DNA from: Opitutales bacterium
Lineage (GTDB): Bacteria > Verrucomicrobiota > Verrucomicrobiia > Opitutales > UBA9783
NCBI GenBank assembly: GCA_024407725.1
Contig: JAKSVZ010000021.1
Location: 1 to 11,433 of the forward strand
DNA length: 11,433 nucleotides
Direction of reading: 5' to 3'
The notes under the pieces were generated by a model. It worked only from the letters and a program-made list of their open reading frames with translations, did no database searches and was not told where the DNA came from. Made by a program: the position numbers and the translations under genes. Every line of letters starts with the position of its first letter. The stretch's first letter is position 1. This document shows positions 1-11,433 of the stretch, one piece after another.

Positions 1-221
1 TCAAAGGTATCACGATGGGGATACGCATCTAGGATCTTAAACGCACGTAGGTTTTCTACACAACGTGCTTCATATGCATCGTAATTTTCTTTGGTCAACC
101 GATGCTTATCATGTTCAATGCACCACGCCATATAACGGTTAATATCCGGATGATAATGGGCATGATCGCAGTAATTCGCTAGATTACTAACAAAAGCACA
201 ATCATGCCAACCGTAGATTTT
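1..221 (-). CDS. 3' continuation of the DltD-like gene in the -1 frame. It is partial and runs off the window start.
   Basis: I hand-translated the minus strand from 221 downward. It is open to the window edge: KIYGWHDCAFVSNLANYCDHAHYHPDINRYMAWCIEHDKHRLTKENYDAYEARCVENLRAFKILDAYPHRDTF. The frame opens immediately after a stop at 222..224. It joins the 179..1120 frame if one extra A is read in the A6 run (T6 on the plus strand, 218..223). It contains a D-x-x-H motif (Asp 165..167, His 156..158), as expected near the C-terminus of SGNH/DltD-like enzymes. Confidence 0.5.
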
Positions 222-1120
222 TTAACATTTGGGAGATCAGCACAGGCAGTTACCAAGTGGCGCCAATCAAAGAAGAAAGCATGATACATCTGATAAGGAG
301 TATAGGTGATAAGATTTTGACGAGGTGCACGTTTATAGGATATCCAGCTGTTAGGAGGCATCATTAGATAAAATTTGACCTCTGGATTATATCGAAAAAT
401 TTTCAATAAATCGTTGAATCGTTGAATTGAACATTGAACATCAATACGAGTATATTGACTAAAATCCGGTATGGATCGCCTTAGTTTTGATAAGTTTTGA
501 GGACTTACCCAAGAAATAAAACCATTTTCTTTACGCCAATACCAATTACGGATATTGTCTAAAGTGCACCATGTATGGAATATGGGATTATCCAAGCTAA
601 ATCCTCGCGAAACCCTATAACATGGGAAAATGCTGCGTAAACATTCTGATGAAGTAACGCACAACCATGGACGCTTCATGATTGGGATCGTTCTCATTAA
701 TTGTGTTTTATCATTAACACTTGACCAATAAAAACAAGCATCTATGACGAAAAAAACATATCTAAGTTTACCAGTGGTAATACATTGACGTGCATATTCG
801 CATCCTAAAGGCAATCCTTGATCGCTACTGCTCAACTTCAGTACCCCTTTAGCCCCTACCGCTTTAGCTAGGTCAGTACCTTTGAAGTTCATCGTGTGCG
901 AAGAACCTACCAGAATACTATCGTAATCATTACTTCTTTTGAGGTAGGTTTCGATTTGACCTAAGTTGATTAAAGTTTGACTACCAAACCATAGGTTTTT
1001 GTTCCACCGCGTCTCATGAAAAATATGGTACGGATCTACCATATAGACCATCAACGGCCCTATCGTCCAAAATAGGAATGTACAAAGAAGAAAATACAGG
1101 ATGTTGCGGCGTGAGGGCAT
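179..1120 (-). CDS. Membrane-anchored DltD-like / SGNH-like putative O-acyltransferase partner of the MBOAT. As encoded it appears truncated by a frameshift.
   Basis: This is the track ORF 179..1132. I prefer the ATG at 1120 (MPSRRNILYFLL...) over the TTG at 1132. The N-terminus is hydrophobic (ILYFLLCTFLFWTIGPLMVYMV), consistent with a single TM anchor. A G-S-S-H motif (nt 896..907) sits about 75 aa in, comparable to the GSSE serine motif of DltD. The gene lies 26 nt downstream of the MBOAT stop. The encoded C-terminus (STVGMIVLLLVI*) follows a homopolymer and looks out of frame. The family assignment comes from architecture and motifs only. Confidence 0.55.
   Translation of the reverse strand: MPSRRNILYFLLCTFLFWTIGPLMVYMVDPYHIFHETRWNKNLWFGSQTLINLGQIETYLKRSNDYDSILVGSSHTMNFKGTDLAKAVGAKGVLKLSSSDQGLPLGCEYARQCITTGKLRYVFFVIDACFYWSSVNDKTQLMRTIPIMKRPWLCVTSSECLRSIFPCYRVSRGFSLDNPIFHTWCTLDNIRNWYWRKENGFISWVSPQNLSKLRRSIPDFSQYTRIDVQCSIQRFNDLLKIFRYNPEVKFYLMMPPNSWISYKRAPRQNLITYTPYQMYHAFFFDWRHLVTACADLPNVKKSTVGMIVLLLVI
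1080..1111. repeat. Left arm of a 32-nt perfect inverted match, within the coding N-terminus of the DltD-like gene
   Basis: gtacaaagaagaaaatacaggatgttgcggcg (1080..1111) is the exact reverse complement of 11387..11418. Confidence 0.9.
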
Positions 1121-1146
1121 GATGAAATGCAATCCCTACACAGGCA

Positions 1147-2598
1147 TTAAAACTGCCAATACAGAAATTCTGCTTGGCTTGCTTTATTTACAATGTGCAT
1201 CCACAAAAACATAAAGGTTCCCCAGAGGAGGATAGTTTTGTACCAAAAAGGACGTAAAAAACGGTCGCATAGTTGTTTTGAGCTGTTAAACAAAACACAC
1301 AAGGCCAAGAGAATTCCTACGGTTATTACAAACCTACCAGCTAGTATGTTATCCATTAAAGCTCCCCATACCTCACTTTTTACAACGCGTATCGTTTTAT
1401 CCGACAAATCGACATTAATGAGCGATTTAATATAAAAGACGTTAAACATCTTCTTTAAAATCGCACAGGCATCTTGAACGGAGTTGGCTCGAAAGAACAC
1501 CCAAGCGATGTTGACGAAATTGAATGTAATCAACCAACTTAAAAAGGTGTTTAATTGATAACCTGTCTTAGTCCACAAACGATGAATAACGCTTGCTATT
1601 CCGTGTAACCCTCCCCAAATAACAAAGGTCCATCCTGCCCCGTGCCAAATACCTCCAATTAAAAAGGTTAGGAATAAATTAACGCACGTACGTGATAAGG
1701 CGCAATGGCTCCCGCCTAAGGGGATATAAACATAGTTTTTCAACCAAGTGGATAGGGTCATATGCCAACGACGCCAAAAATCTTGTATACTTAACGCTTG
1801 ATAAGGAGAATTGAAGTTTTCAGGCAGGCGAATACCGAACAACAATCCGCTTCCAATAGCCATATCAGCATAGCCGCTAAAATCAAAATAGAGTTGTAGC
1901 GTATAACCTATACTGGCTGTCCAAGCACCCAAAAACTGGAGTTGATCAATGGCTCCGTAACATTCATTTACATAGCCTGCTAGGGTATCGGCCAACATTA
2001 CTTTTTTGAACAAACCAAAAATAAATAGGCTTAATCCTTGGTACATGGCGTCCCAATTGACCGTTTTTTGAGCCTTAAATTGGGGAACCATTTCTTGATA
2101 ATGCACAATCGGTCCAGCGATCAATTGAGGGAAAAAGATTACAAACAGTACATATTCCAAAAAGCTGCAAGGTGCTGCCAAATGTTTATAGGCATCAACC
2201 AAATAAGCTATTTGTTGAAAGGTATAAAAGCTAATACCCAAGGGCAGAATGATTTTTGCTAACGCCCAGTGAGTACCCAACAAAGCATTACAGTTTTCGA
2301 TAAAAAAATTGTAGTATTTAAAATATCCCAATAACGCAACATTAGCCCCTACACCGAGCATCAATAATACGGTTCGACGATTCTTTTTCAGTAACGAATT
2401 ACCAATACAAAAGTTAACGCTTGCGGACGCGAGCAATAAAAAGAAAAACTTCCAATTCCACGTGATGTAAAAGACCGCTGATGCAACCAACAAAACGGGA
2501 ACAGACCATCCTGTTTTATGCTTTGCAATAGCTAACCAATACACAATTGCCGTAAGGGGCAATAGGCACACGAAATACCAAGGATCACAAAATAGCAT
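1147..2598 (-). CDS. MBOAT-family membrane-bound O-acyltransferase (AlgI/DltB/PatA-like)
   Basis: The 483-aa ORF is polytopic and hydrophobic. It has the hallmark MBOAT block FWRRWHMTLSTWLKNYVYIPLGGS, followed by GGIWHGAGW containing the conserved His. The N-terminus is AlgI-like (MLFCDPWYFVCLLPL). Confidence 0.9.
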   Translation of the reverse strand: MLFCDPWYFVCLLPLTAIVYWLAIAKHKTGWSVPVLLVASAVFYITWNWKFFFLLLASASVNFCIGNSLLKKNRRTVLLMLGVGANVALLGYFKYYNFFIENCNALLGTHWALAKIILPLGISFYTFQQIAYLVDAYKHLAAPCSFLEYVLFVIFFPQLIAGPIVHYQEMVPQFKAQKTVNWDAMYQGLSLFIFGLFKKVMLADTLAGYVNECYGAIDQLQFLGAWTASIGYTLQLYFDFSGYADMAIGSGLLFGIRLPENFNSPYQALSIQDFWRRWHMTLSTWLKNYVYIPLGGSHCALSRTCVNLFLTFLIGGIWHGAGWTFVIWGGLHGIASVIHRLWTKTGYQLNTFLSWLITFNFVNIAWVFFRANSVQDACAILKKMFNVFYIKSLINVDLSDKTIRVVKSEVWGALMDNILAGRFVITVGILLALCVLFNSSKQLCDRFLRPFWYKTILLWGTFMFLWMHIVNKASQAEFLYWQF

Positions 2599-2611
2599 AA
2601 TACTTTATGTT

Positions 2612-2743
2612 TTATCCTCTTTTAAAAATTGCTTTAAAAGCTCGAACAATAGTGTTTCTAAACACAAAACCTAGGGTTACGAAACCGGCAACAATAGCTC
2701 GGATAATGATAGTGGTTAAACCTGCATCCAAATAAGCAATCAT
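2612..2743 (-). CDS. Microprotein P1 (43 aa), single-TM, MIAYxD family
   Basis: Hand translation gives ATG (2741..2743) to TAA (2612..2614): MIAYLDAGLTTIIIRAIVAGFVTLGFVFRNTIVRAFKAIFKRG. It ends 13 nt upstream of the MBOAT ATG. It aligns without gaps to P2 and P3. It is not in the ORF track because it is under 60 aa. Confidence 0.6.
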   Translation of the reverse strand: MIAYLDAGLTTIIIRAIVAGFVTLGFVFRNTIVRAFKAIFKRG

Positions 2744-2747
2744 AAAT

Positions 2748-2891
2748 TTATTTTTTTGATGTAAATACTGACCGTAGCCCCTTAAAACATGAACTGATTG
2801 TATTACGCAGGAAATATACTGCTGTCAAAACACAACCAACAACCGCTTGGATAATAAATCCACCTAAAGAAAAATCAAAATAGGCTATCAT
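2748..2891 (-). CDS. Microprotein P2 (47 aa), single-TM, MIAYxD family
   Basis: Hand translation gives ATG (2889..2891) to TAA (2748..2750): MIAYFDFSLGGFIIQAVVGCVLTAVYFLRNTISSCFKGLRSVFTSKK. Its stop is 4 nt from the P1 ATG. The first codons differ from P1/P3 only synonymously (ata/att, gcc/gct). Confidence 0.6.
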   Translation of the reverse strand: MIAYFDFSLGGFIIQAVVGCVLTAVYFLRNTISSCFKGLRSVFTSKK

Positions 2892-2899
2892 ATTAATTA

Positions 2900-3043
2900 C
2901 TATCCTTTCTTAGTAAATAATTGTTTAAAAAACAGAAACGCTTTTTTTACAGAACTCCTACAAAAAACCAATGCAGTAGTGGCGGTAACAACGACTGTTT
3001 GAGTAATAAGAGAAGCTACCCCTCCATCGATATAAGCAATCAT
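2900..3043 (-). CDS. Microprotein P3 (47 aa), single-TM, MIAYxD family
   Basis: Hand translation gives ATG (3041..3043) to TAG (2900..2902): MIAYIDGGVASLITQTVVVTATTALVFCRSSVKKAFLFFKQLFTKKG. Its stop is 8 nt from the P2 ATG. Its start is 45 nt downstream of the CofE-like stop. Confidence 0.6.
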   Translation of the reverse strand: MIAYIDGGVASLITQTVVVTATTALVFCRSSVKKAFLFFKQLFTKKG

Positions 3044-3088
3044 AATTAAAACTCAAAGGGCAGAATAGGCTAAAATCAAGCCAAAAAT

Positions 3089-3802
3089 TTACTGTAAAAG
3101 TTCCAATAAGGGTTGATATAAATCCTCGTGCGGATCGATACACAAATCTTCCGCTGAGTGCGTTTGTTGGTCAAAGACAATGTGAGGAATATCGGTTACA
3201 ACAGCTAATGGGGTGCATTCCGAACTTTCTCCCATAGTTAATACGGCACTAACAGCCAACGCATCCCCTAGGTTAATACTGGTCACCTTTAACGGACGGC
3301 CGAACAAATCTGGGTGTCCAATATAGCTAACAACTGGATTAAATCCCCACCATGCAAGTGCAATACCGGTTACCCCTCGTCTAAGGGGGGTTGTGTGGCT
3401 ATCGGTGATCAATACCCCACATTCTTTAAGATGATGGTGCTGCACTAAGTGAGTATAAATCCTGCAAGCGGATTGAAAGGGGTCTTGGGGATAGAGGATA
3501 TAATATCCATTGCCATTCGATTCATCAATACCGGCTGATGGAATCAACAGGTGATGCTTATAGGTCAACACAATGTCGTGTTCTTTCGTGGGAGTCGCCA
3601 ATACACGATCAGCCTCGCGTTCAATGAGTTCAGTTTTTGAAATGGAATTTTGGGGAACCACCCGTCCTTCGCATACACTAACGACTTTGGAGGTAATAGC
3701 CACAACCGAGCGTTCAGGAAGCGTTGGTAAAAAGCGATCGATAAATGCTTCAATCGATTGGCATTCGCTCACACGCTCTGTTTTAATAGCCTCAATACGC
3801 AT
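3089..3802 (-). CDS. folC2: CofE-family (F420-0:gamma-glutamyl ligase-like) protein, likely the alternative folylpolyglutamate/dihydrofolate synthase of chlamydial type (FolC2)
   Basis: CofE-family blocks are present: SKVVSVCEGR, PSAGIDESNG, ITDSHTTPLRRGVTGIALAWWGF, DALAVSAVLTMGE. It sits directly after folKP and overlaps it, as with C. trachomatis CT611 next to its folate genes. The start is either ATG 3802 (11-nt overlap) or GTG 3808 (17-nt overlap, the track start). Confidence 0.75.
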   Translation of the reverse strand: MRIEAIKTERVSECQSIEAFIDRFLPTLPERSVVAITSKVVSVCEGRVVPQNSISKTELIEREADRVLATPTKEHDIVLTYKHHLLIPSAGIDESNGNGYYILYPQDPFQSACRIYTHLVQHHHLKECGVLITDSHTTPLRRGVTGIALAWWGFNPVVSYIGHPDLFGRPLKVTSINLGDALAVSAVLTMGESSECTPLAVVTDIPHIVFDQQTHSAEDLCIDPHEDLYQPLLELLQ

Positions 3803-5096
3803 ACCCACCTGCTAACCATTGTTGCGCAACCAACGCACGTTGATGTAATGCAACATTATGAATGCGAATGTAGTCTACTTGATGGCGTAAGGCAAGCGAA
3901 ATGGCAACCGTTTCCGCATCCCGCTGCGATGCTTCCTGAGGACTAAAAGCATTTAGGTAGCTCTTTCGGGAATGGCCTAAAAGCGTTGGACATCCTGTTT
4001 TAGCAGCCCATTCCCCATATCGTTGCAACAACTCCTTTGTTTGGTAAGCGCTTTTCCCGAAACCAATCCCAAAATCTAAAATAATCTTATCGGTTGAAAA
4101 CCCTAGGTGGATTAGCCGCTCCACCTGCTGAGTACTCCAATCGATTAACGTTGGATTCAAGTTACGTAGGCATTCATTGTTTTTTACAGGAACCGACAAA
4201 GCATGCATGATGCAAACGGAGCACCCTTGGTTGGCAATAATGTGCAAAATTTCGTCTGATAATAGGTGTGGGAAGGTATTAATCCAAGCGATAGGATACT
4301 GTTCTACGAGTTGCTTAATAACGGGTGCTTGGAAGGTATCGATACTCACCGTAACTTCATCAAAATTCAGCCTATCCAAAACCGGTTTTAGGCGCTTCCA
4401 TTCTTCTTCGGGGGCAATTTGAACCCCATCGGGTCTCGTGGATTGCGCCCCTATGTCTACTATAGTAGCGCCTTCTTGTATCAATTGATGGCAACGCGCA
4501 ACCGCGGCATCAGGAGTAAACGATAATTCTCCGTCCGAAAACGAATCGGGGGTAACGTTGACAATGCCCACACAGCGCGGTTCAAGGACGAACGAACGGA
4601 TAAAGGGAACCTCAGGGCGTAGTATTTGGGTGGCTAGTTCCGCAAACGAGCCCTGTGTTTTGGGGTCTGTGCCGTCTGGGTTCATCAAGGCCATTAAATG
4701 CGCTAAAAACCAACGGTTATAAAGGCCAGAATGAGGAATGCTCAGCTGTTCGCTTTGGATACACTCGTTATCATACAACACGATATCTAGATCTAAGGTT
4801 CTGGGGCTCCAACGCTCATGGTTTGGATCGCGCCCCGCTTGCTGTTCAATGGCCTTTAACCGTGCTAGCAGGGCATAAGGATCCAAATCCGTTTCTCCGC
4901 GAACAAGGGCGTTTAGGTAGGGTCGATCCCAATCGGCTGGGGAATTGGGCAATACCAAGGCTGGGGTTTCTAGTACAATGGAAGCAACTACGTTTTGTAA
5001 AACACCTGCCTTCAAGCAATCAATTCCCTGATGCAGATAAGCTAAGCGGTTCCCAAGGTTAGAACCTAAGGCAATATAAACGGTATGCATCGGCAT
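3792..5096 (-). CDS. folKP: Bifunctional 6-hydroxymethyl-7,8-dihydropterin pyrophosphokinase / dihydropteroate synthase (HPPK-DHPS fusion)
   Basis: The N-terminal half has HPPK motifs (VYIALGSNLGNR, RWSPRTLDLDIVLY). The C-terminal half has DHPS motifs (GIVNVTPDSFSDG, DIGAQSTRPDG, LLGHSRKS). The ATG overlaps the upstream stop in TAATG (5094..5098). Confidence 0.92.
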   Translation of the reverse strand: MPMHTVYIALGSNLGNRLAYLHQGIDCLKAGVLQNVVASIVLETPALVLPNSPADWDRPYLNALVRGETDLDPYALLARLKAIEQQAGRDPNHERWSPRTLDLDIVLYDNECIQSEQLSIPHSGLYNRWFLAHLMALMNPDGTDPKTQGSFAELATQILRPEVPFIRSFVLEPRCVGIVNVTPDSFSDGELSFTPDAAVARCHQLIQEGATIVDIGAQSTRPDGVQIAPEEEWKRLKPVLDRLNFDEVTVSIDTFQAPVIKQLVEQYPIAWINTFPHLLSDEILHIIANQGCSVCIMHALSVPVKNNECLRNLNPTLIDWSTQQVERLIHLGFSTDKIILDFGIGFGKSAYQTKELLQRYGEWAAKTGCPTLLGHSRKSYLNAFSPQEASQRDAETVAISLALRHQVDYIRIHNVALHQRALVAQQWLAGGYAY

Positions 5097-6577
5097 TAAA
5101 AGTTTACGTTACGCATATCACCGGTTGTTTGATACGCCTGATATAAAGCAAAAACATTGGATAGATTGTGGCCGATATGCCCCTGTTGAGCTTGCTTTAA
5201 ATACGCTTGCAAGATGGGTCGATAATCAGGATGAGCACAAGCAATCATAGCCTTGGCGCGTTGCTCGGGTGATTTTCCGCGTAAATCTGCGCAGCCGTAC
5301 TCAGTGACAATGATTTGGGTATCGTGTTCGGTATGGTCGATATGCGAACAGAAAGGAACGATATTAGAAATAGCGCCTGATTTAGCGGTTGACGGGAGGG
5401 TAAATACCGATAAGAAGCTGTTGCGTGCAAAATCTCCAGATCCCCCAATACCATTGACCGCCTGAGTACCCTGTACATGCGTACTATTTACGTTTCCAAA
5501 CAAATCTACCTCCAAGGCCGAATTAAAGGATAATAACCCAAGGCGTCGAATCACTTCAGGATGATTGCTAATTTCCTGAGGACGTAAAACTAATCGATTT
5601 TGATAACAACTCCAGTTGGAATACAGTTCCTTTTGATAGCTATCGGTTACATAAATTCCACAGGTACTGATAAAGCTAATCTTCCCTTGTTTCATCAATT
5701 CAAACACAGCATCTTGAGCGATTTCGGTATATACTTGGAAGGTTGGTATGGCAGGATTCGCACCCATAACTTTTAAAATAGCGTTCGCTATGTTGCCAAT
5801 ACCCGATTGCACAGGCAAAAATGATTGCGGAATACGCCCCACTTGCATTTCTTGCTGTAAAAATTCAACAACCCGTTCCCCAATGCGTTGATAAACGGTA
5901 TCAATGGGTTTAAACTCTGGGTTTTGCTCGCCCTGATAGGTCTCCACCACCCCTAGGATTTTTTTGGGATCTACCGTTAGCTGCGTTGTTCCAATCCGGT
6001 CGCTGGGTTTAGTAACAGGGATGATGTCATACGGCGGATAACGATTAGGTTCGTAAATATCATGAATCCCCTTTAGCGGAGCATGATAGGGATTGTGCTC
6101 TAAGATAATATGCTTTGCACACTGACAAAAGGTAGGGGTTGCTCCAACCGACGCTGTTAATGTCAGCTGTCCATCGGGGGTATAATCTGCTACTTCGACC
6201 AACGCATAATCAAGAGGTCCCATAATGCCGCTGCGTATACTTTGCGGGAAGTGCGACAAATGCTCCTCGCGATACGCAACGTTTCCTTGATTGATGGCGG
6301 TACGCATCGCAGGATGCGATTGATAAGGGGCTCGGTAAGTAACCGCTTGGGCTTGAGTCAGAGCCCCATCTACCGCTTCATGGGAAGAAGCACCGGTTAA
6401 TAGATGAATACTGAAAGCTTGGCCTTTCTGATGCAATTCAGTTGCACGCTTTGCCAAAGCTAACGGAATACTTTTGACGCTACCGGCACTTGTGAATCCG
6501 CTACATGCAACCCAAGCCCCATTGGGGATGAAGGCAGCCGCTTCGTCGGCCGAAAGAATAGGAAACACAGAAGCCAT
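5096..6577 (-). CDS. Acetyl-CoA hydrolase/transferase family enzyme, succinate/acetate CoA-transferase type (ScpC/YgfH/AarC-like)
   Basis: The 493-aa ORF is colinear with my recollection of E. coli YgfH. Shared blocks include SGFTSAGSVK, LLTGAS, YRAPYQ, DPKKILGVVET, LPVQSGIGNIANA, LRPQEISNHPEVIRRLG, NGIGGSGDFARN and IVTEYGCADLRG. Confidence 0.88.
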   Translation of the reverse strand: MASVFPILSADEAAAFIPNGAWVACSGFTSAGSVKSIPLALAKRATELHQKGQAFSIHLLTGASSHEAVDGALTQAQAVTYRAPYQSHPAMRTAINQGNVAYREEHLSHFPQSIRSGIMGPLDYALVEVADYTPDGQLTLTASVGATPTFCQCAKHIILEHNPYHAPLKGIHDIYEPNRYPPYDIIPVTKPSDRIGTTQLTVDPKKILGVVETYQGEQNPEFKPIDTVYQRIGERVVEFLQQEMQVGRIPQSFLPVQSGIGNIANAILKVMGANPAIPTFQVYTEIAQDAVFELMKQGKISFISTCGIYVTDSYQKELYSNWSCYQNRLVLRPQEISNHPEVIRRLGLLSFNSALEVDLFGNVNSTHVQGTQAVNGIGGSGDFARNSFLSVFTLPSTAKSGAISNIVPFCSHIDHTEHDTQIIVTEYGCADLRGKSPEQRAKAMIACAHPDYRPILQAYLKQAQQGHIGHNLSNVFALYQAYQTTGDMRNVNF

Positions 6578-6686
6578 AAATACTTAAGAATTTAATGCTA
6601 TCGCTAGGCGTTGGCAATTTGTTTTATGCATCCTAGGAGTCCTATGGTACATTTTATGCTTTTTCAAACATACAGTAACTCATTTT

Positions 6687-7763
6687 ATGGCTCACATCGA
6701 TTACAACAACTTTCAGCTCAACAATGCATTTAATGTTAACGACATTAATGGGGTCAACGACCAGAATCAGCAGCTTCAACCCCTCGAAGAAACCTATCAG
6801 GAATTAAAAAACCTATGGGATAATTTGCCTCAAGGGGATAAGGCTGTGTTAAACAACAACGTTCAGGAACGGTTTGATGGCGTCTTACGGAATTTGAGGA
6901 ATGCAATTGATACCCTTCAAAGGGCTATCCAAGACGGTCAACCGCAAGCAATTATTGATCAGAAACAACGAGAAGCAGAGGCTGCGAAGCAAGCTGCTAT
7001 AACTGTGTTTAATGGAAACGCTCAAACGATTGGGTTAAACAAGTGCATTGAGGTGGGACATTTCTTGGCTGAAGTACCCTATGATGAGTTAAAAGACCTA
7101 TGGGATCATGCCCCTCAGGACGTTAAAGATGCGTTAGGAGGCAAGTTCCAGGAGTTCGTAAATGAAAAGTTGAACGACCTAAAGGACGCAATGCAAAGGT
7201 TGGAAGCGGCTCTAGAAAGAGGAGCGTCTCCAGATGAAATAGCCATATTGCAGGGAGAAATTGAAAACCTACAGAAACAATTAGAAGGGGCTTTAATCGA
7301 GGGCGACCATTCGATCGATTTAATTGCGCGATACCAATTACTGGAAGAGATTATCAATAATCCCGGTGATTATGAGGTAGAAGATTACAATTCCCTGATC
7401 AATCAGTTGAAAGACCCAAATAATACAGCAAATATAGTCACGTGGGAACAAAGAATAGAGGATGCAAAAAATAGGCATTCAGCTGTTGTACATCAAAACG
7501 TTGAGAAAGCTCTGAATGAAAACCTGAAACAAGCGCAACACAGTGTTATCATCAACAAAAACAGTAAGAATGCTAAGAAGATTAGAGATTTAATGGCGAA
7601 TGCGTCGGATGCCTTGCTTAAGGCAGAAATGGAAAAGGATAAATATCAAGAGGAGCTATCTAAACTTAACGATACTGTGAAAAAAGTATATGAAGAAGGC
7701 TCTTGGCGCCCCAAAACAGCACAAGAGATGGCAGAAGCAGAGGCAAAGAAAAGATTGTTGTAA
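6687..7763 (+). CDS. Acidic coiled-coil protein with an internal duplication, a candidate type III secretion substrate
   Basis: The 358-aa ORF has no signal peptide or TM segment. Its N-terminus is polar and N/Q-rich (MAHIDYNNFQLNNAFNVNDINGVNDQNQQ). The body is heptad-like and rich in E/K/Q/L. It ends 13 nt before a T3S class I chaperone gene. I recognise no family. Confidence 0.6.
   Translation: MAHIDYNNFQLNNAFNVNDINGVNDQNQQLQPLEETYQELKNLWDNLPQGDKAVLNNNVQERFDGVLRNLRNAIDTLQRAIQDGQPQAIIDQKQREAEAAKQAAITVFNGNAQTIGLNKCIEVGHFLAEVPYDELKDLWDHAPQDVKDALGGKFQEFVNEKLNDLKDAMQRLEAALERGASPDEIAILQGEIENLQKQLEGALIEGDHSIDLIARYQLLEEIINNPGDYEVEDYNSLINQLKDPNNTANIVTWEQRIEDAKNRHSAVVHQNVEKALNENLKQAQHSVIINKNSKNAKKIRDLMANASDALLKAEMEKDKYQEELSKLNDTVKKVYEEGSWRPKTAQEMAEAEAKKRLL
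6795..6947 (+). repeat. Internal protein repeat unit 1 (aa 37-87) of the 358-aa protein
   Basis: YQELKNLWDNLPQGDKAVLNNNVQERFDGVLRNLRNAIDTLQRAIQDGQPQ aligns without gaps to aa 132-182. By hand, 19 of 51 positions are identical. Confidence 0.7.
7080..7232 (+). repeat. Internal protein repeat unit 2 (aa 132-182) of the 358-aa protein
   Basis: YDELKDLWDHAPQDVKDALGGKFQEFVNEKLNDLKDAMQRLEAALERGASP. The shared core is Y-x-ELK-x-LWD-x-x-PQ-x-x-K-x-x-L...QE.....L..L..A...L..A...G. Confidence 0.7.
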
Positions 7764-7776
7764 AAAGTAGAAAACT

Positions 7777-8238
7777 ATGGCTGATTTTGCATCTTATATT
7801 ACCCAGTATGGCAAAAGTGTTGGGTTGCCCGAACTAAAGTTCAATGAAGCGGGCATGTGCTCCCTAACGTTTGATGGTAAAATTGCAGTTGATATTGTCT
7901 ACCATAAGGATGTGGATCAGTGCGCGTTTGTATCGGTTGTAGGAACCCTGCCCAGCGAAAACCAAGAGGAATGCTTTAAACAACTGTTGATTTCCAATGC
8001 CTACGGGACGGAAAACAAGGGGGCAAGCATCGGTATTGAAGAATCCGAAAATCGGATTATTTTAAGTTACGTTTTTATCCCCAGCATTGTTTCGTTTGAC
8101 CTATTTAAAACCCTATTGGGCAATTTTGTTACGTTAACCGAAAAATGGCAGGGTCAGTATGAAAGCCTTTTAGGCTCCTTGGGTTCCTCTGAATCAACGG
8201 AAAGTGTCCCGAATCCGTTTGAATTTACACGCATTTAG
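7777..8238 (+). CDS. Type III secretion class I chaperone (CesT/SycE/Slc1-like)
   Basis: The protein is 153 aa and acidic. It follows the canonical pattern: N-terminal 'LPELKFNEAGMCSLTFDGKIAVDIVY', then 'CAFVSVVGTLP', 'LLISNAYG...GASIGIEESENRIILSY', then 'FDLFKTLLGNFVTLTEKW'. Overall it resembles my recollection of chlamydial Slc1 (CT043), including a flexible S/G-rich tail. Confidence 0.72.
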   Translation: MADFASYITQYGKSVGLPELKFNEAGMCSLTFDGKIAVDIVYHKDVDQCAFVSVVGTLPSENQEECFKQLLISNAYGTENKGASIGIEESENRIILSYVFIPSIVSFDLFKTLLGNFVTLTEKWQGQYESLLGSLGSSESTESVPNPFEFTRI

Positions 8239-8324
8239 GGGCAAAACCGAGCGTAATTGACGTCCATAGGCGCTTGCACGTTTTACGCTTGAAATTCCTT
8301 TAAAAAATCCTGTACTGTAAGGTG

Positions 8325-9437
8325 ATGTGTGCCTATACAGTAATCGCGCGCCGCTGGCGTCCCAAACGGTTTAGCGACCTAGTTGGGCAAAGTACCATTG
8401 TCAAATCCCTTTCTAATGCGATTGAAACCAAACGCATTGCGCATGCCTATCTGTTTGTTGGCCCACGAGGAACTGGGAAAACCAGTATGGCTCGCCTATT
8501 CGCAATGGCTCTCAATTGCGAAAATGGCCCGCGGATAGATTTCGACCCTGACAGCGAACGGTGCCAAGCGATTTTCCAAGGACGTTCTTTGGATGTCATT
8601 GAAATCGATGGAGCTTCCAACAATTCGGTAGAACAAATCCGTACGCTGCGCGAAGAATGCCAGTATGCTCCTGCAGAGGGTCAATACAAGGTGTACATTT
8701 TGGATGAAGTGCACATGCTAACGACGGCAGCCTTTAATGCACTCCTAAAAACGCTGGAAGAACCGCCAGCACACGTTAAGTTTATCTTTGCAACCACCGA
8801 AGTTCATAAGGTACCCACAACCATTGTTTCGCGTTGCCAGCATTTTGAATTTTTCCCCTTGGACCCTGAGCTCATTGAGCAACGGTTACAGTTGATTGTA
8901 GAAACAGAAAAGCTGCAGGCAGAACCGCAAGCGCTTCACATGATTGCGTTGTTGTCGGATGGGGGGATGCGCGACGCCCAATCCATGTTGGATCAACTGC
9001 TAACCTTTTCAGAAGGTAAGTTAACGGCACAGGCGGTTCAAAGTATGTATGGGTTGCTTCCTCAAGAAGCCTTAACCGCCTTAGGTCAATCCATCGAGCA
9101 AGGCGATTATACCCATGTGCTACAGATAGCAGAACAAATTGCGCAAAAAGGGTGCGATGTGTACCGTGCGTTGGTCGATTTGGAACGTTACTTCCATGAG
9201 CAATTCCTGAAGGCCATTAAAGACCCTCAAACAACCCCCTATGTGCCCTTTGTTTATGCAAAGATTTTAGAAATTCTAAAGTCGGGAGAAACGCAAGTAC
9301 AACAAGGCTTGTCCGTCCGTAGCAATTTAGAAGCAATCTTATTTCGAGCAATCGAATGTACTAAAATGGCGGCCTTAGAAACTTTATTAAAAGCCTTTAA
9401 TGCTGCTCCGGCAGATGTAAAAAAAAACGATTGTTAG
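8325..9437 (+). CDS. dnaX: DNA polymerase III subunit gamma/tau, zero-frame product. It ends 3 codons after an A9 run.
   Basis: RRWRPKRFSDLVGQ, the Walker A motif GPRGTGKTS, ILDEVHML and TRILPTI-like VPTTIVSRCQ blocks are present. I prefer ATG 8325 over the track GTG 8322. The zero frame reads ...ADVKKNDC* with its stop at 9435..9437. Confidence 0.93.
   Translation: MCAYTVIARRWRPKRFSDLVGQSTIVKSLSNAIETKRIAHAYLFVGPRGTGKTSMARLFAMALNCENGPRIDFDPDSERCQAIFQGRSLDVIEIDGASNNSVEQIRTLREECQYAPAEGQYKVYILDEVHMLTTAAFNALLKTLEEPPAHVKFIFATTEVHKVPTTIVSRCQHFEFFPLDPELIEQRLQLIVETEKLQAEPQALHMIALLSDGGMRDAQSMLDQLLTFSEGKLTAQAVQSMYGLLPQEALTALGQSIEQGDYTHVLQIAEQIAQKGCDVYRALVDLERYFHEQFLKAIKDPQTTPYVPFVYAKILEILKSGETQVQQGLSVRSNLEAILFRAIECTKMAALETLLKAFNAAPADVKKNDC
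9419..9427 (+). other. A9 homopolymer (A AAA AAA AAc) at the dnaX frame junction. It is a candidate slippery site or a homopolymer indel.
   Basis: Nine consecutive A residues were counted directly at 9419..9427. The zero frame reads gtA AAA AAA AAc. The -1 frame is open from 9401 and continues to 9754. Confidence 0.8.
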
Positions 9438-9754
9438 CGCTCATCCAGCAGGTTCAGGAATTGATTAACGAGCACTCCGTTCGCAAAACCTTAATACCTT
9501 CGATCCCTGTACCCGTTGTTGAAACGCCCACGCAACCGATGAACGATCAATCAACAGAATCGCTTGAACCTATGCCGACGGTTTCGCCTATGAGCACAAT
9601 ACCCTCGAGTACCGAAACGATAACTCAGTCAACGGTTCCGGACTTCCAAGGTTCGGTTGCAGCTATTCCTAATAGCGTTAAAGAGGCGTTTAAAACCCTA
9701 CTTCGGGGCGAAATCAATGGGATTTGGCCGATTAACCCTAAAGGCTTACGTTAA
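9425..9754 (+). CDS. dnaX: -1-frame continuation of dnaX (tau-like C-terminal extension)
   Basis: The track ORF 9431..9754 starts at a TTG with no plausible independent start context. After a -1 shift in the A9 run it would read ...VKKKRLLALIQQVQELINEH... It then has a P/S/T-rich linker (IPSIPVPVVETPTQP...TVSPMSTIPSSTETITQSTVP) and a short tail (VKEAFKTLLRGEINGI). That tail resembles the conserved DnaX C-terminal tail as I recall it. The fused product would be 476 aa from ATG 8325. Confidence 0.7.
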   Translation, partial: KRLLALIQQVQELINEHSVRKTLIPSIPVPVVETPTQPMNDQSTESLEPMPTVSPMSTIPSSTETITQSTVPDFQGSVAAIPNSVKEAFKTLLRGEINGIWPINPKGLR

Positions 9755-9812
9755 CTCGATCCGTTAAAAAAACTTTACAAGCCCCTGCGCTTGATGTTCT
9801 ATAAAATTTAAT

Positions 9813-10064
9813 ATGGAAAATATTGAGCAAAGAGTAAAACGTGTTGTTTGCGATAAGCTTCGTGTAAATATGGAGCAAGTTACCTATGAGGCTTCTTTTA
9901 AAGATGACCTAGGAGCTGACTCACTGGATCAAGTAGAACTTGTAATGGGTTTGGAAGACGAATTCAAGGACGAGCTTAAAGGCGATATCGCGGCTGAAGA
10001 TGCTGAAAAAATCGATACAGTCGGTAAGGCAATCGAATATATTTCCAGCAAGGCTGGCAAATAA
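9813..10064 (+). CDS. acpP: Acyl carrier protein
   Basis: The protein is 83 aa and acidic. It has the phosphopantetheine attachment motif [19 protein letters not shown] (Ser codon 9921..9923). It lies directly upstream of fabF. Confidence 0.95.
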
Positions 10065-10088
10065 GCCTTCATTATCATTGTTTCGGCA

Positions 10089-11345
10089 ATGAAACCCAAC
10101 CAAGAGGTGCGAGTCGTTGTCACGGGATTAGGAACCATTAATCCATTGGGGCATACGATCAACGATTTTTGGAACGCGTTACTCACAGGACGTTCCGGAA
10201 TTCGCAAGGTGTCGCACTTCGACGTATCTGAATTACCTACTCAAATTGCAGGAGAGGTTGTTGGCTTTGATGCGTCTCGTTATATGGACGCTAAAGAAGT
10301 AGGACATACGGATCCCTGCACTCAATTTGCTTTGGCAGCATCGCAATTAGCTTTCGAAGATGCTCAATTGCACATTTCAGATGCTGAATCCGATCGCTGC
10401 GGCGTCATCATCGGCACGGGCATCGGCGGAATGCGAAGCATCCAAGAGCATTCCTTTACCTTATTTTCTAAAGGTGGCAAGCGCCTATCCCCTTTTACTA
10501 TTCCTTCGGTTATCTGCAATATTGCTTCTGGAAAGGTAGCTATTGCCTTAAATTTACGCGGTCCCAATTTCGGTGCCGTTAGCGCCTGTGCTTCCGGAAC
10601 CCATGCTATTGGTGAAGCATTTCATTGGTTAAAAACCGGAGCAGTCGATGTTATGTTGGCGGGAGGCAGCGAAGCCCCCATTGAACCGTTAGGATTTTGC
10701 GGCTTTTGCTCCATGAAAGCCATGAGTACCCATTTTAACGATTGCCCAGAAAAGGCCAGTCGTCCCTTCGATGCCAAACGCGACGGCTTTGTTATGGGGG
10801 AAGGAGCCGGCGTTCTGGTTTTAGAAACCTTAGAACATGCCCAAAAACGAGGCGCTAAAATTTATGGTGAACTTTGCGCCTATTCAGCTTCTTGTGACGC
10901 ATTCCACATTACCCGCCCAGAACCTTCAGGACGAGCTCTGATCCACTGCTTCCGTTCGGTATTAGATACTTCGAATACACAGCCAGAAGCGGTAGATTAC
11001 ATCAACACGCATGGTACCTCTACCTATTACAACGATTTGCTAGAAACAACCGCCATTAAAGCTGTTTTTGGAACCCACGCTCAAAAGCTCAATATCAGTT
11101 CGACCAAATCCATGACCGGTCACTTATTGGGAGCAGCAGGCGGTGTAGAAGCGATTGTTACCGTAAAAACGATTGAAACCGGTATTATTCCTCCAACCAT
11201 TAACTACGAAAACGCCGATCCACAGTGCGACTTGAATTATACTCCTAACAAAGCTGTTAAACGCCCTGTTCAAGTGGCTATATCGGATAATTTAGGCTTT
11301 GGCGGACAAAATGGTGCGTTGCTGTTTAAAGCTTTTTCAGACTAA
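10089..11345 (+). CDS. fabF: 3-oxoacyl-ACP synthase II (KAS II)
   Basis: The protein is 418 aa. It has VVVTGLGTINPLG, the active-site Cys in AVSACASGTHAIGEA, and the His residues in INTHGTST and TGHLLGAAG. The C-terminus is GFGGQNGALLF. Confidence 0.95.
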   Translation: MKPNQEVRVVVTGLGTINPLGHTINDFWNALLTGRSGIRKVSHFDVSELPTQIAGEVVGFDASRYMDAKEVGHTDPCTQFALAASQLAFEDAQLHISDAESDRCGVIIGTGIGGMRSIQEHSFTLFSKGGKRLSPFTIPSVICNIASGKVAIALNLRGPNFGAVSACASGTHAIGEAFHWLKTGAVDVMLAGGSEAPIEPLGFCGFCSMKAMSTHFNDCPEKASRPFDAKRDGFVMGEGAGVLVLETLEHAQKRGAKIYGELCAYSASCDAFHITRPEPSGRALIHCFRSVLDTSNTQPEAVDYINTHGTSTYYNDLLETTAIKAVFGTHAQKLNISSTKSMTGHLLGAAGGVEAIVTVKTIETGIIPPTINYENADPQCDLNYTPNKAVKRPVQVAISDNLGFGGQNGALLFKAFSD

Positions 11346-11365
11346 TACCTTGTGGGGATTGGCTT

Positions 11366-11433
11366 ATGAACACTTCCCTGTTCTCTCGCCGCAACATCCT
11401 GTATTTTCTTCTTTGTACGTTTTTGTTTTGGAT
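11366..11433 (+). CDS. 5' end (22 codons, partial) of a second DltD-like paralog
   Basis: The ATG at 11366 lies 20 nt after the fabF stop. It reads MNTSLFSRRNILYFLLCTFLFW. Sixteen residues (SRRNILYFLLCTFLFW) are identical to residues 3-18 of the 179..1120 product counted from its ATG. Confidence 0.65.
   Translation, partial: MNTSLFSRRNILYFLLCTFLFW
11387..11418. repeat. Right arm of the 32-nt perfect inverted match, within the coding N-terminus of the paralog
   Basis: cgccgcaacatcctgtattttcttctttgtac (11387..11418). Beyond it the two copies still encode the same residues with different codons (aca ttc cta ttt tgg versus acg ttt ttg ttt tgg). Confidence 0.9.

Follow-up and report, generated by a model that had tools for sequence, protein, structure and literature searches.

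The dnaX locus and its split reading frame

We analysed a stretch of 11,433 nucleotides (nt) from an Opitutales bacterium (contig JAKSVZ010000021.1, positions 1 to 11,433 of the forward strand; hereafter the window), in which the gene dnaX changes reading frame at a run of nine adenines (A9). The gene encodes the gamma/tau subunit of DNA polymerase III (Pol III), the AAA+ ATPase of the clamp loader, as the first-pass annotation of the window had proposed: its zero-frame product reaches 411.9 bits against TIGR02397 (cut-off 250) and 419.4 bits against NF004046 (cut-off 400). Pfam places the DnaX ATPase, lid and gamma domain III in the same product, all above cut-offs (PF13177, 148 bits, 3e-43; PF22608, 48.5 bits; PF12169, 30.3 bits), and the zero-frame translation holds a Walker A motif (GPRGTGKTS) and an SRC motif (VSRCQ). 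Since all three clamp-loader domains lie within it, the zero-frame product is a complete gamma-like subunit; the orthologue P0001 has likewise been called at 370 amino acids (aa). The features of the locus are the following.

8325..9437, plus strand: zero-frame open reading frame (ORF) of dnaX, a 370-aa gamma-like DnaX with AAA+ module, lid and domain III, ending in VKKNDC, with the stop TAG at 9435..9437
9419..9427, plus strand: A9 homopolymer, putative slippage site, letters AAAAAAAAA, kept in the same codon phase, as A9 or A10, by every close relative and across Opitutia
9425..9754, plus strand: extension in the -1 frame, belonging to the tau-like form only, 109 codons (KRLLALIQQ...PKGLR), with the stop TAA at 9752..9754
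9617..9751, plus strand: conserved C-terminal segment of the tail, TITQSTVPDFQGSVAAIPNSVKEAFKTLLRGEINGIWPINPKGLR, supported by the invariant columns of 11 tails and by hhalign
9427..9468, plus strand: +1-frame reading past the run, 13 codons, TIVSAHPAGSGID, then a stop

The ORF lister begins the gene at GTG 8322, and ATG 8325 is taken here as the start of dnaX. At the junction the zero frame reads ...GAT GTA AAA AAA AAC GAT TGT TAG, so that the first A of the run is the third base of a Val codon, the run itself is divided as (GT)A AAA AAA AA(C), and the stop follows three codons past it. In the -1 frame, which opens at 9401 after a stop at 9398..9400, the run makes exactly three Lys codons, followed by CGA TTG TTA. 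Two slippery heptamers lie in phase with the zero frame, A_AAA_AAA (9419..9425) and A_AAA_AAC (9422..9428). Body and -1 tail fused would give 476 aa (...DVKKKRLLALIQQ...GIWPINPKGLR), with the predicted junction letters ...DVKKKRLLALIQ... and the junction peptide DVKKKRLLALIQQVQE. The first-pass annotation had described this arrangement, and its coordinates, both product lengths, the Pro/Ser/Thr-rich middle of the tail and the in-phase A_AAA_AAA are all borne out by the sequence. The +1 reading would supply a second gamma-sized product, ending ...KKTIVSAHPAGSGI, where a transcript gains two A's or loses one; the corresponding frame of relatives ends after 2–20 codons.

No other A9 or T9 occurs in the window. 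Shuffles that preserve its dinucleotide composition contain 1.41 such runs on average, so an A9 run is by itself not improbable in so AA-rich a sequence, and the case is therefore not built on the run alone. What goes beyond chance is its position at the border of DnaX domains III and IV, the switch of frame at that point and the conservation of both in relatives.

The tail and its relation to tau

Eleven split tails were aligned, and they share invariant P, F, F, L, G, W, P and I columns, with a peak of conservation in the C-terminal segment PPPDF..AL..IP..L...F...L.G.IVGIWPI. When these tails were compared by hhalign with 14 C-termini of uninterrupted tau proteins from Verrucomicrobiota, the two profiles matched over 44 columns with a probability of 91.8% (E 7e-7). 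The last 44 residues of the tail are homologous to the C-terminus of the uninterrupted tau of the phylum, which supports the earlier proposal of a short product by standard decoding with a tau-like tail in the -1 frame. Searches of Pfam and of PDB sequences with the tail returned no match, and the canonical tau domains IV and V (tau_4, tau_5) were not detected; the uninterrupted tau proteins of the phylum likewise list only N-terminal families. The lack of a recognisable domain IV/V seems to characterise the lineage. In Pol III it is tau, an essential form, that binds the polymerase. The conserved C-terminal segment is probably its partner-binding end and presumably binds the polymerase, the helicase or both.

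A single-sequence HMMER search of 1.84 billion representatives with the tail returned one protein, and a profile search of a word-indexed collection returned nine, all of them orphan tail ORFs. Amino-acid conservation in relatives begins right at the run (KRLL.., KRFEQL.., KRYRQI..; that is, KR followed by L, F or Y). Taken together with the homology to tau and with the purifying selection described below, this indicates that the tail is translated as a continuation of the DnaX body and forms its tau-specific end.

Conservation of the split arrangement

Comparison of dnaX in related genomes had been suggested by the first-pass annotation as a check on the split. We collected 174 related loci and classified every dnaX junction by its run and frame state; the run proves to be A9 or A10 where the tail lies in the -1 frame, and this state is conserved in 24 loci. 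The classes are as follows.

Split, tail in -1: 24 loci, A9 or A10, tail 106–169 aa, including the window, the cultured Cephaloticoccus primus and many metagenome-assembled genomes (MAGs)
Split, tail in +1: 1 locus (L072), A11, tail 161 aa
Uninterrupted with a run: 17 loci, A8–A10; in 16 of them at least one alternative frame closes within 7 codons
Long, without a run: 108 loci, mostly more distant dnaX genes

The 24 loci of the first class come from independent assemblies, assigned to Opitutia by their record titles, at 48–97% protein identity to the window, and their zero frame closes a few codons past the run (2–8 in the close loci tabulated). Among the best 120 protein clusters, 59 are short (about 365–430 aa) and end within a few residues past KK[K/N], and 49 are long with KKK at this place; of the 27 closest clusters, 26 are called short (365–386 aa) and end just past KK[N/K]. 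One short form, P0021, occurs in 80 blocks of the assembly collection, and an assembly artefact is thereby excluded. Closest of all sequences is the metagenomic contig L161, which carries the A9 split at about 91% nucleotide identity over 6 kb and has the same gene order as the window (358-aa ORF, CesT-like ORF, dnaX, tail ORF, acpP, fabF). The best database matches to DnaX are named Puniceicoccales, Opitutae and Opitutales, which places the organism in Verrucomicrobiota, class Opitutia, and a metagenome scan gave only two close relatives (L081 and L082), the other 78 loci being distant dnaX genes without a run. The members of the close clade share the junction gt-A9-cg, whose first A occupies codon position 3. 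L170 has A10, since the Arg codon that follows its run is AGA in place of CGA; only in the -1 frame does this exchange leave the amino acid unchanged. The split state prevails in the window's clade and is common across Opitutia.

Some junctions depart from this pattern in ways of their own. The two loci encoding P0020, named Puniceicoccales (L171, 3159..3167; L172, 3053..3061), have a second A9 about 70 nt downstream of the first, within the tau tail, and slippage there would truncate tau again. In an Opitutaceae MAG (L013, around 3120..3140) the zero frame stops 4 nt ahead of an A10 run, and the tail frame opens before the run is reached; the frame change is therefore not at the run and reflects either a second indel or an assembly error. 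Three further Opitutia loci (L012, L001 and L007) encode an uninterrupted tau of 397–475 aa that keeps the C-terminal motif and has no A-run of 8 or more at the border; these may have no gamma or may make it by another route.

Selection on the tail and on the homopolymer

Ratios of nonsynonymous to synonymous substitution rates (dN/dS) separate the tail frame from the other two. Between the window and L161 the ratio is 0.38 in the tail frame, 0.81 and 1.35 in the other frames and 0.05 in the dnaX body; between L081 and L167 the corresponding values are 0.15, 1.44 and 1.66, and 0.04. The tail is under purifying selection, and in the -1 frame only.

The homopolymer is itself selected, over more than one heptamer: pure runs are kept against the pressure of guanine-plus-cytosine (GC) content, including A's that lie outside any single heptamer. 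Opitutaceae dnaX genes at 64–71% GC retain a pure A9 or A10, in genes where AAA makes up 0–38% of Lys codons and A stands at 2–7% of third positions; the wobble A of the codon before the Lys codons (GAA, CAA or TCA) is conserved in 7 of 7 of these genes. In the window's own clade the third Lys codon of the tail frame is AAA in 12 of 12 cases, and the Val or Leu codon ahead of the Lys codons ends in A in 11 of 11.

A proposed mechanism for tau synthesis

How would the two forms be made? We consider it probable that the window holds an intact, functional dnaX with a conserved recoding site of the two-ORF type, in which standard decoding gives the short form and transcriptional slippage the long one. 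RNA polymerase would slip on the nine template T's and produce mRNAs of varying A-run length. Transcripts with A9, or with any number of A's differing from it by a multiple of three, would yield the 370-aa gamma-like protein ending in VKKNDC; one extra A (also four extra, or two fewer) would bring the downstream ORF into frame and yield the 476-aa tau-like protein, and transcripts with A11 or A8 would give a gamma-sized protein with the 13-residue alternative tail. That the slippage is transcriptional we infer, as we do the ratio of the products and the partners of the tail.

A ribosomal stimulator was sought on both sides of the run. With -9.6 kcal/mol (z = +0.55), the fold of the 60 nt downstream is no better than those of shuffles; when 60 and 100 nt downstream, 60 nt upstream and the whole cassette of the window were folded, only the 100-nt downstream segment reached z = -2.06. 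This fold was rejected as a conserved stimulator: its pairing is long-range, starts 10 nt past the run and is absent from the 60-nt folds of relatives. Across 28 loci (60 nt downstream, 50 nt upstream) no hairpin is conserved, with downstream z values of about -1.9 to +1.0, and no Shine-Dalgarno (SD)-like motif is conserved either; in the window no AGGAGG-like motif precedes the run (...gctgctccggcagatgt). A search of Rfam, which includes the E. coli DnaX frameshifting element, was negative both at the gathering threshold and with E values allowed up to 10. Folding, multi-locus comparison and Rfam thus agree with the first-pass annotation, which had seen no convincing hairpin or SD-like element.

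In Thermus thermophilus the A9 of dnaX gives about 50% slipped product (Baranov 2005, PMC1088944; Atkins 2016, PMC5009743). With this precedent, with no ribosomal stimulators found and with an in-frame heptamer other than A_AAA_AAG, transcriptional slippage is the most likely route to tau. The orthologues point the same way, as they need slips in both directions or none at all: the tail is in -1 with A9 or A10, in +1 with A11 at one locus, and in frame in the 17 uninterrupted genes with A8–A10. Slips in both directions among orthologues are what Antonov et al. (2013, PMC3711429) used to recognise transcriptional realignment, and their occurrence here supports it.

Several considerations weigh against this interpretation. 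The efficiency of slippage at A9 varies by organism (Baranov 2005, PMC1088944). A ribosomal slip at either of the two in-phase -1 heptamers would yield an identical protein, and in high-GC Opitutaceae the zero frame reads GAA AAA AAA AAG GGC TGA, which places the canonical A_AAA_AAG in phase. Our view is also that of one 11-kb window, and any second dnaX of the genome would lie beyond its reach.

Alternative explanations

The closest competitor is programmed -1 ribosomal frameshifting, by which A_AAA_AAA or A_AAA_AAC on a uniform mRNA would give the same two products. Both heptamers stand in the right phase and the slip would produce the same VKKKRLL junction; an insertion sequence (IS) element cluster with A_AAA_AAC has proven frameshifting and no established stimulator (Sharma 2014, PMC4066793), and Chlorobium phaeobacteroides offers a two-ORF candidate with E. 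coli-like stimulators (Atkins 2016, PMC5009743). The Opitutaceae relatives further provide an in-phase A_AAA_AAG directly before the zero-frame stop, in the form GAA AAA AAA AAG GGC TGA in at least four loci (L006, L008, L009, L011) and CAA AAA AAA AAG CCT TGA in L002; tau lies in the -1 frame in all the high-GC split junctions compared (these five and L014). Ribosomal frameshifting may contribute in this branch. For the window we nevertheless hold it unlikely, since no downstream structure or SD-like element is present or conserved, 9–10 A's are kept where one heptamer needs fewer, even at 70% GC, and the A11 locus with its +1 tail cannot be served by a -1 ribosomal slip. In E. coli, moreover, A_AAA_AAA and A_AAA_AAC are far less shift-prone than A_AAA_AAG (Atkins 2016, PMC5009743). 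Much less probable again are two separate genes, a gamma-only DnaX and a small protein with the tau C-terminal motif, started at TTG 9431 or later and perhaps associated non-covalently. Several assemblies do annotate the tail as an ORF of its own (96–132 aa; 97 aa, P0127, for that of the window), and the overlap of TTG 9431 with the zero-frame stop could couple the translation of the two. Against this, no start codon is conserved (ATG, GTG and TTG are all absent from the 45 nt past the run in L164), the tail is not called in L163 and L170 and its called starts elsewhere vary by tens of codons, and amino-acid conservation starts at the run, upstream of those starts. Such an arrangement would not need the A9 or A10 run, which is conserved even at 70% GC, and the uninterrupted relative L162 reads through the same sequence.

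Slightly less credible still, and the least probable of the explanations we considered, is a defect, whether a miscount of the homopolymer in sequencing or assembly or a recent inactivating loss of one A from a single-ORF dnaX. Homopolymers are error-prone in sequencing and in replication, and L162, about 94% identical to the split L081 in nucleotides, carries A10 within one ORF of 511 aa. The A9 split nevertheless recurs in the independent assembly L161 and in at least 11 further species-level relatives, as well as in many independent assemblies of P0021; the tail is still under purifying selection; and a true knockout of an essential tau should not become fixed across a class. Of the two mechanisms that the first-pass annotation had judged likelier, transcriptional slippage remains the best explanation here, and the plain indel falls to the 24 conserved split loci and to the selection on the tail.

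The relative L162 bears on the stability of the split as well. Its product, P0002, shares about 75% protein identity with that of the window and is read in frame through A10, and in comparison with L081 the only clean 1-nt indel in conserved sequence is the run itself, A9 against A10. A noisy assembly was entertained as the source of the 20 BLAST gaps between L081 and L162 and rejected, the gaps sitting in divergent intergenic and linker stretches. As L162 is a single contig, its run length may have been miscounted; if the A10 is real, split and unsplit states would interconvert between close relatives. The first-pass annotation held that an A10 single ORF would dispose of the split. Such a state does exist in this relative, and it is not decisive: if slippage makes both proteins from either genotype, an A10 in-frame relative is to be expected.

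An improbable extension of transcriptional slippage is that the homopolymer also serves as a heritable toggle, in which gain or loss of one A during replication would switch the templated DnaX form and allow lineages or subpopulations to reset the tau:gamma ratio of the replisome, amounting to phase variation of the replication machinery. The signs that could be cited for it are the A9 split of L081 beside the A10 single ORF of L162 and the patchwork in which split, unsplit and +1-split genes occur within Opitutia. A toggle of this kind within populations, with a phenotype, would be new if true.

Comparison with known systems

The first-pass annotation had presented the locus as a reversal of the E. 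coli logic. The description of the layout stands, and the claim to novelty does not: two-ORF dnaX genes in which tau needs recoding were described by Antonov et al. in 2013 (NAR 41:6514; PMC3711429; GeneTack cluster COF_239165634), and the arrangement is restated by Sharma 2014 (PMC4066793) and Atkins 2016 (PMC5009743). Their set holds 17 genes from 12 genera, nine with A10 and the others with A9, A8 or A7, for which transcriptional realignment was argued; the genera include Chlorobium, Flavobacterium, Cytophaga, Capnocytophaga, Chloroherpeton (A9) and, with Coraliomargarita akajimensis (A10; Figure S3), a member of Opitutia, order Puniceicoccales. The likeness to the window is close: two ORFs offset by -1 in the DNA, a zero-frame stop immediately past the site, a poly-A of 7–10 at the junction (A9 in the window), conservation in orthologues, gamma by standard decoding and tau by slippage, with a transcriptional mechanism inferred in both. 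The window shows every sequence-level feature by which the two-ORF dnaX class is recognised, and it is a genuine conserved site of a type whose layout has been known since 2013. Compared with the published set, it has A9 followed by C instead of A10 followed by G, and it comes from an uncultured lineage whose closest sequences are metagenomic and at most 97% identical.

A further comparison is with dnaX of T. thermophilus, studied by Larsen et al. (2000); according to the summaries of that work in PMC1088944 and PMC5009743, transcriptional slippage yields mRNAs in each of the three frames and, from them, both products. In those summaries the A9 likewise stands at the gamma/tau border and needs no ribosomal stimulators. 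There tau is what the zero frame encodes, and gamma results from either of the other frames, which close immediately; in the window gamma is templated and one extra A is required for tau. The Thermus layout, with tau templated and the other frames closed, is absent from the window and occurs in L004, L005, L019, L060, L062, L065, L077 and L162; the 17 uninterrupted relatives with an A8–A10 run correspond to it. The programmed -1 ribosomal frameshift of E. coli dnaX (RF00382) shares with the window the gene, the position in the protein, an A-rich slippery site and two products with a common N-terminal clamp-loader core. It relies on A_AAA_AAG, an upstream SD-like element and a downstream stem-loop, whereas the window has A_AAA_AAA and A_AAA_AAC, no such elements found and no Rfam match; in E. 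coli the slip product is the short form, and in the window it is the long one.

Outside dnaX, the longer product of Shigella flexneri mxiE and of Citrobacter rodentium tssM depends on transcriptional slippage (PMC1088944; PMC4256274), by which a non-templated nucleotide at a homopolymer fuses two overlapping ORFs; these are unrelated genes of single species or strains, whereas the dnaX site is conserved across a bacterial class. The frameshifts at poly(A) tracts of Buchnera and Blochmannia, which polymerase infidelity rescues (PMC5009743), resemble the window in that a frameshifted gene is restored in the mRNA at an A-run. They are sporadic lesions in AT-rich, decaying genomes, unlike the dnaX site, which is conserved, lies at a domain border and is kept at 70% GC.

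Implications for annotation

In public records the gene appears as a truncated "DNA polymerase III subunit gamma/tau" of about 370–390 aa and the tail as an unnamed ORF of 96–132 aa, where it is called at all. As a result most Opitutia MAGs have proteomes without the essential tau, and an unwary pipeline might take such a dnaX for a pseudogene. The present data widen what was described in 2013 from a few genomes to an entire class, and add to it the breadth of the arrangement in Opitutia, the flips between split and unsplit states, the argument from GC pressure and the homology of the short tail to tau C-termini. The retention of a pure A9 or A10 against strong GC pressure is good comparative evidence for selected slippage at dnaX, and the natural series of -1-split, +1-split and unsplit genes suits tests of how the tau:gamma ratio is set. 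Current understanding is unchanged by these results, and their practical weight is mainly in annotation.

Other genes in the window

The genes surrounding dnaX offer several minor observations, which are listed by position along with their strand.

6687..7763, plus strand: 358-aa ORF without a family, with a weak match to alpha-xenorhabdolysin subunit A (E 3e-4), directly before the CesT-like ORF
7777..8238, plus strand: CesT/SicP-like type III secretion chaperone ORF, 153 aa (PF05932, 1e-13; NF011857 SicP, 4e-8, below cut-off)
5096..6577, minus strand: acetyl-CoA hydrolase/transferase family, near the cut-offs for butyryl-CoA:acetate and succinyl-CoA:acetate CoA-transferase (NF053853, 550 bits against 500)
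3792..5096, minus strand: fused folK-folP (HPPK and pterin-binding domains)
3089..3808, minus strand: CofE-like gamma-glutamyl ligase, overlapping the end of folK-folP by 17 nt
2599..3088: about 490 bp of low GC (about 35%) between the MBOAT gene and the folate ligase gene
1147..2598, minus strand: MBOAT-family O-acyltransferase
179..1132, minus strand: 317-aa ORF without a Pfam or NCBIfam family, immediately downstream of the MBOAT gene

The first two of these look like an effector-chaperone pair, and the pair is conserved upstream of dnaX in L161. In the low-GC stretch at 2599..3088 neither a tRNA nor an Rfam match was seen, and the sole ORF of at least 50 aa is one of 61 aa that extends into its end. 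The CofE-like ligase matches TIGR04132 best ('putative folate metabolism gamma-glutamate ligase'; 2e-88), at 296 bits where the cut-off is 350, and the protein resembles the non-canonical FolC2 of Chlamydia. In AlgI/DltB-type systems the partner protein usually sits directly downstream of the MBOAT O-acyltransferase, which is the place of the 317-aa ORF. The CoA-transferase-like gene would fit a fermentative lifestyle of the gut type, and among the nearest dnaX relatives is a contig of a Hadza human gut metagenome.

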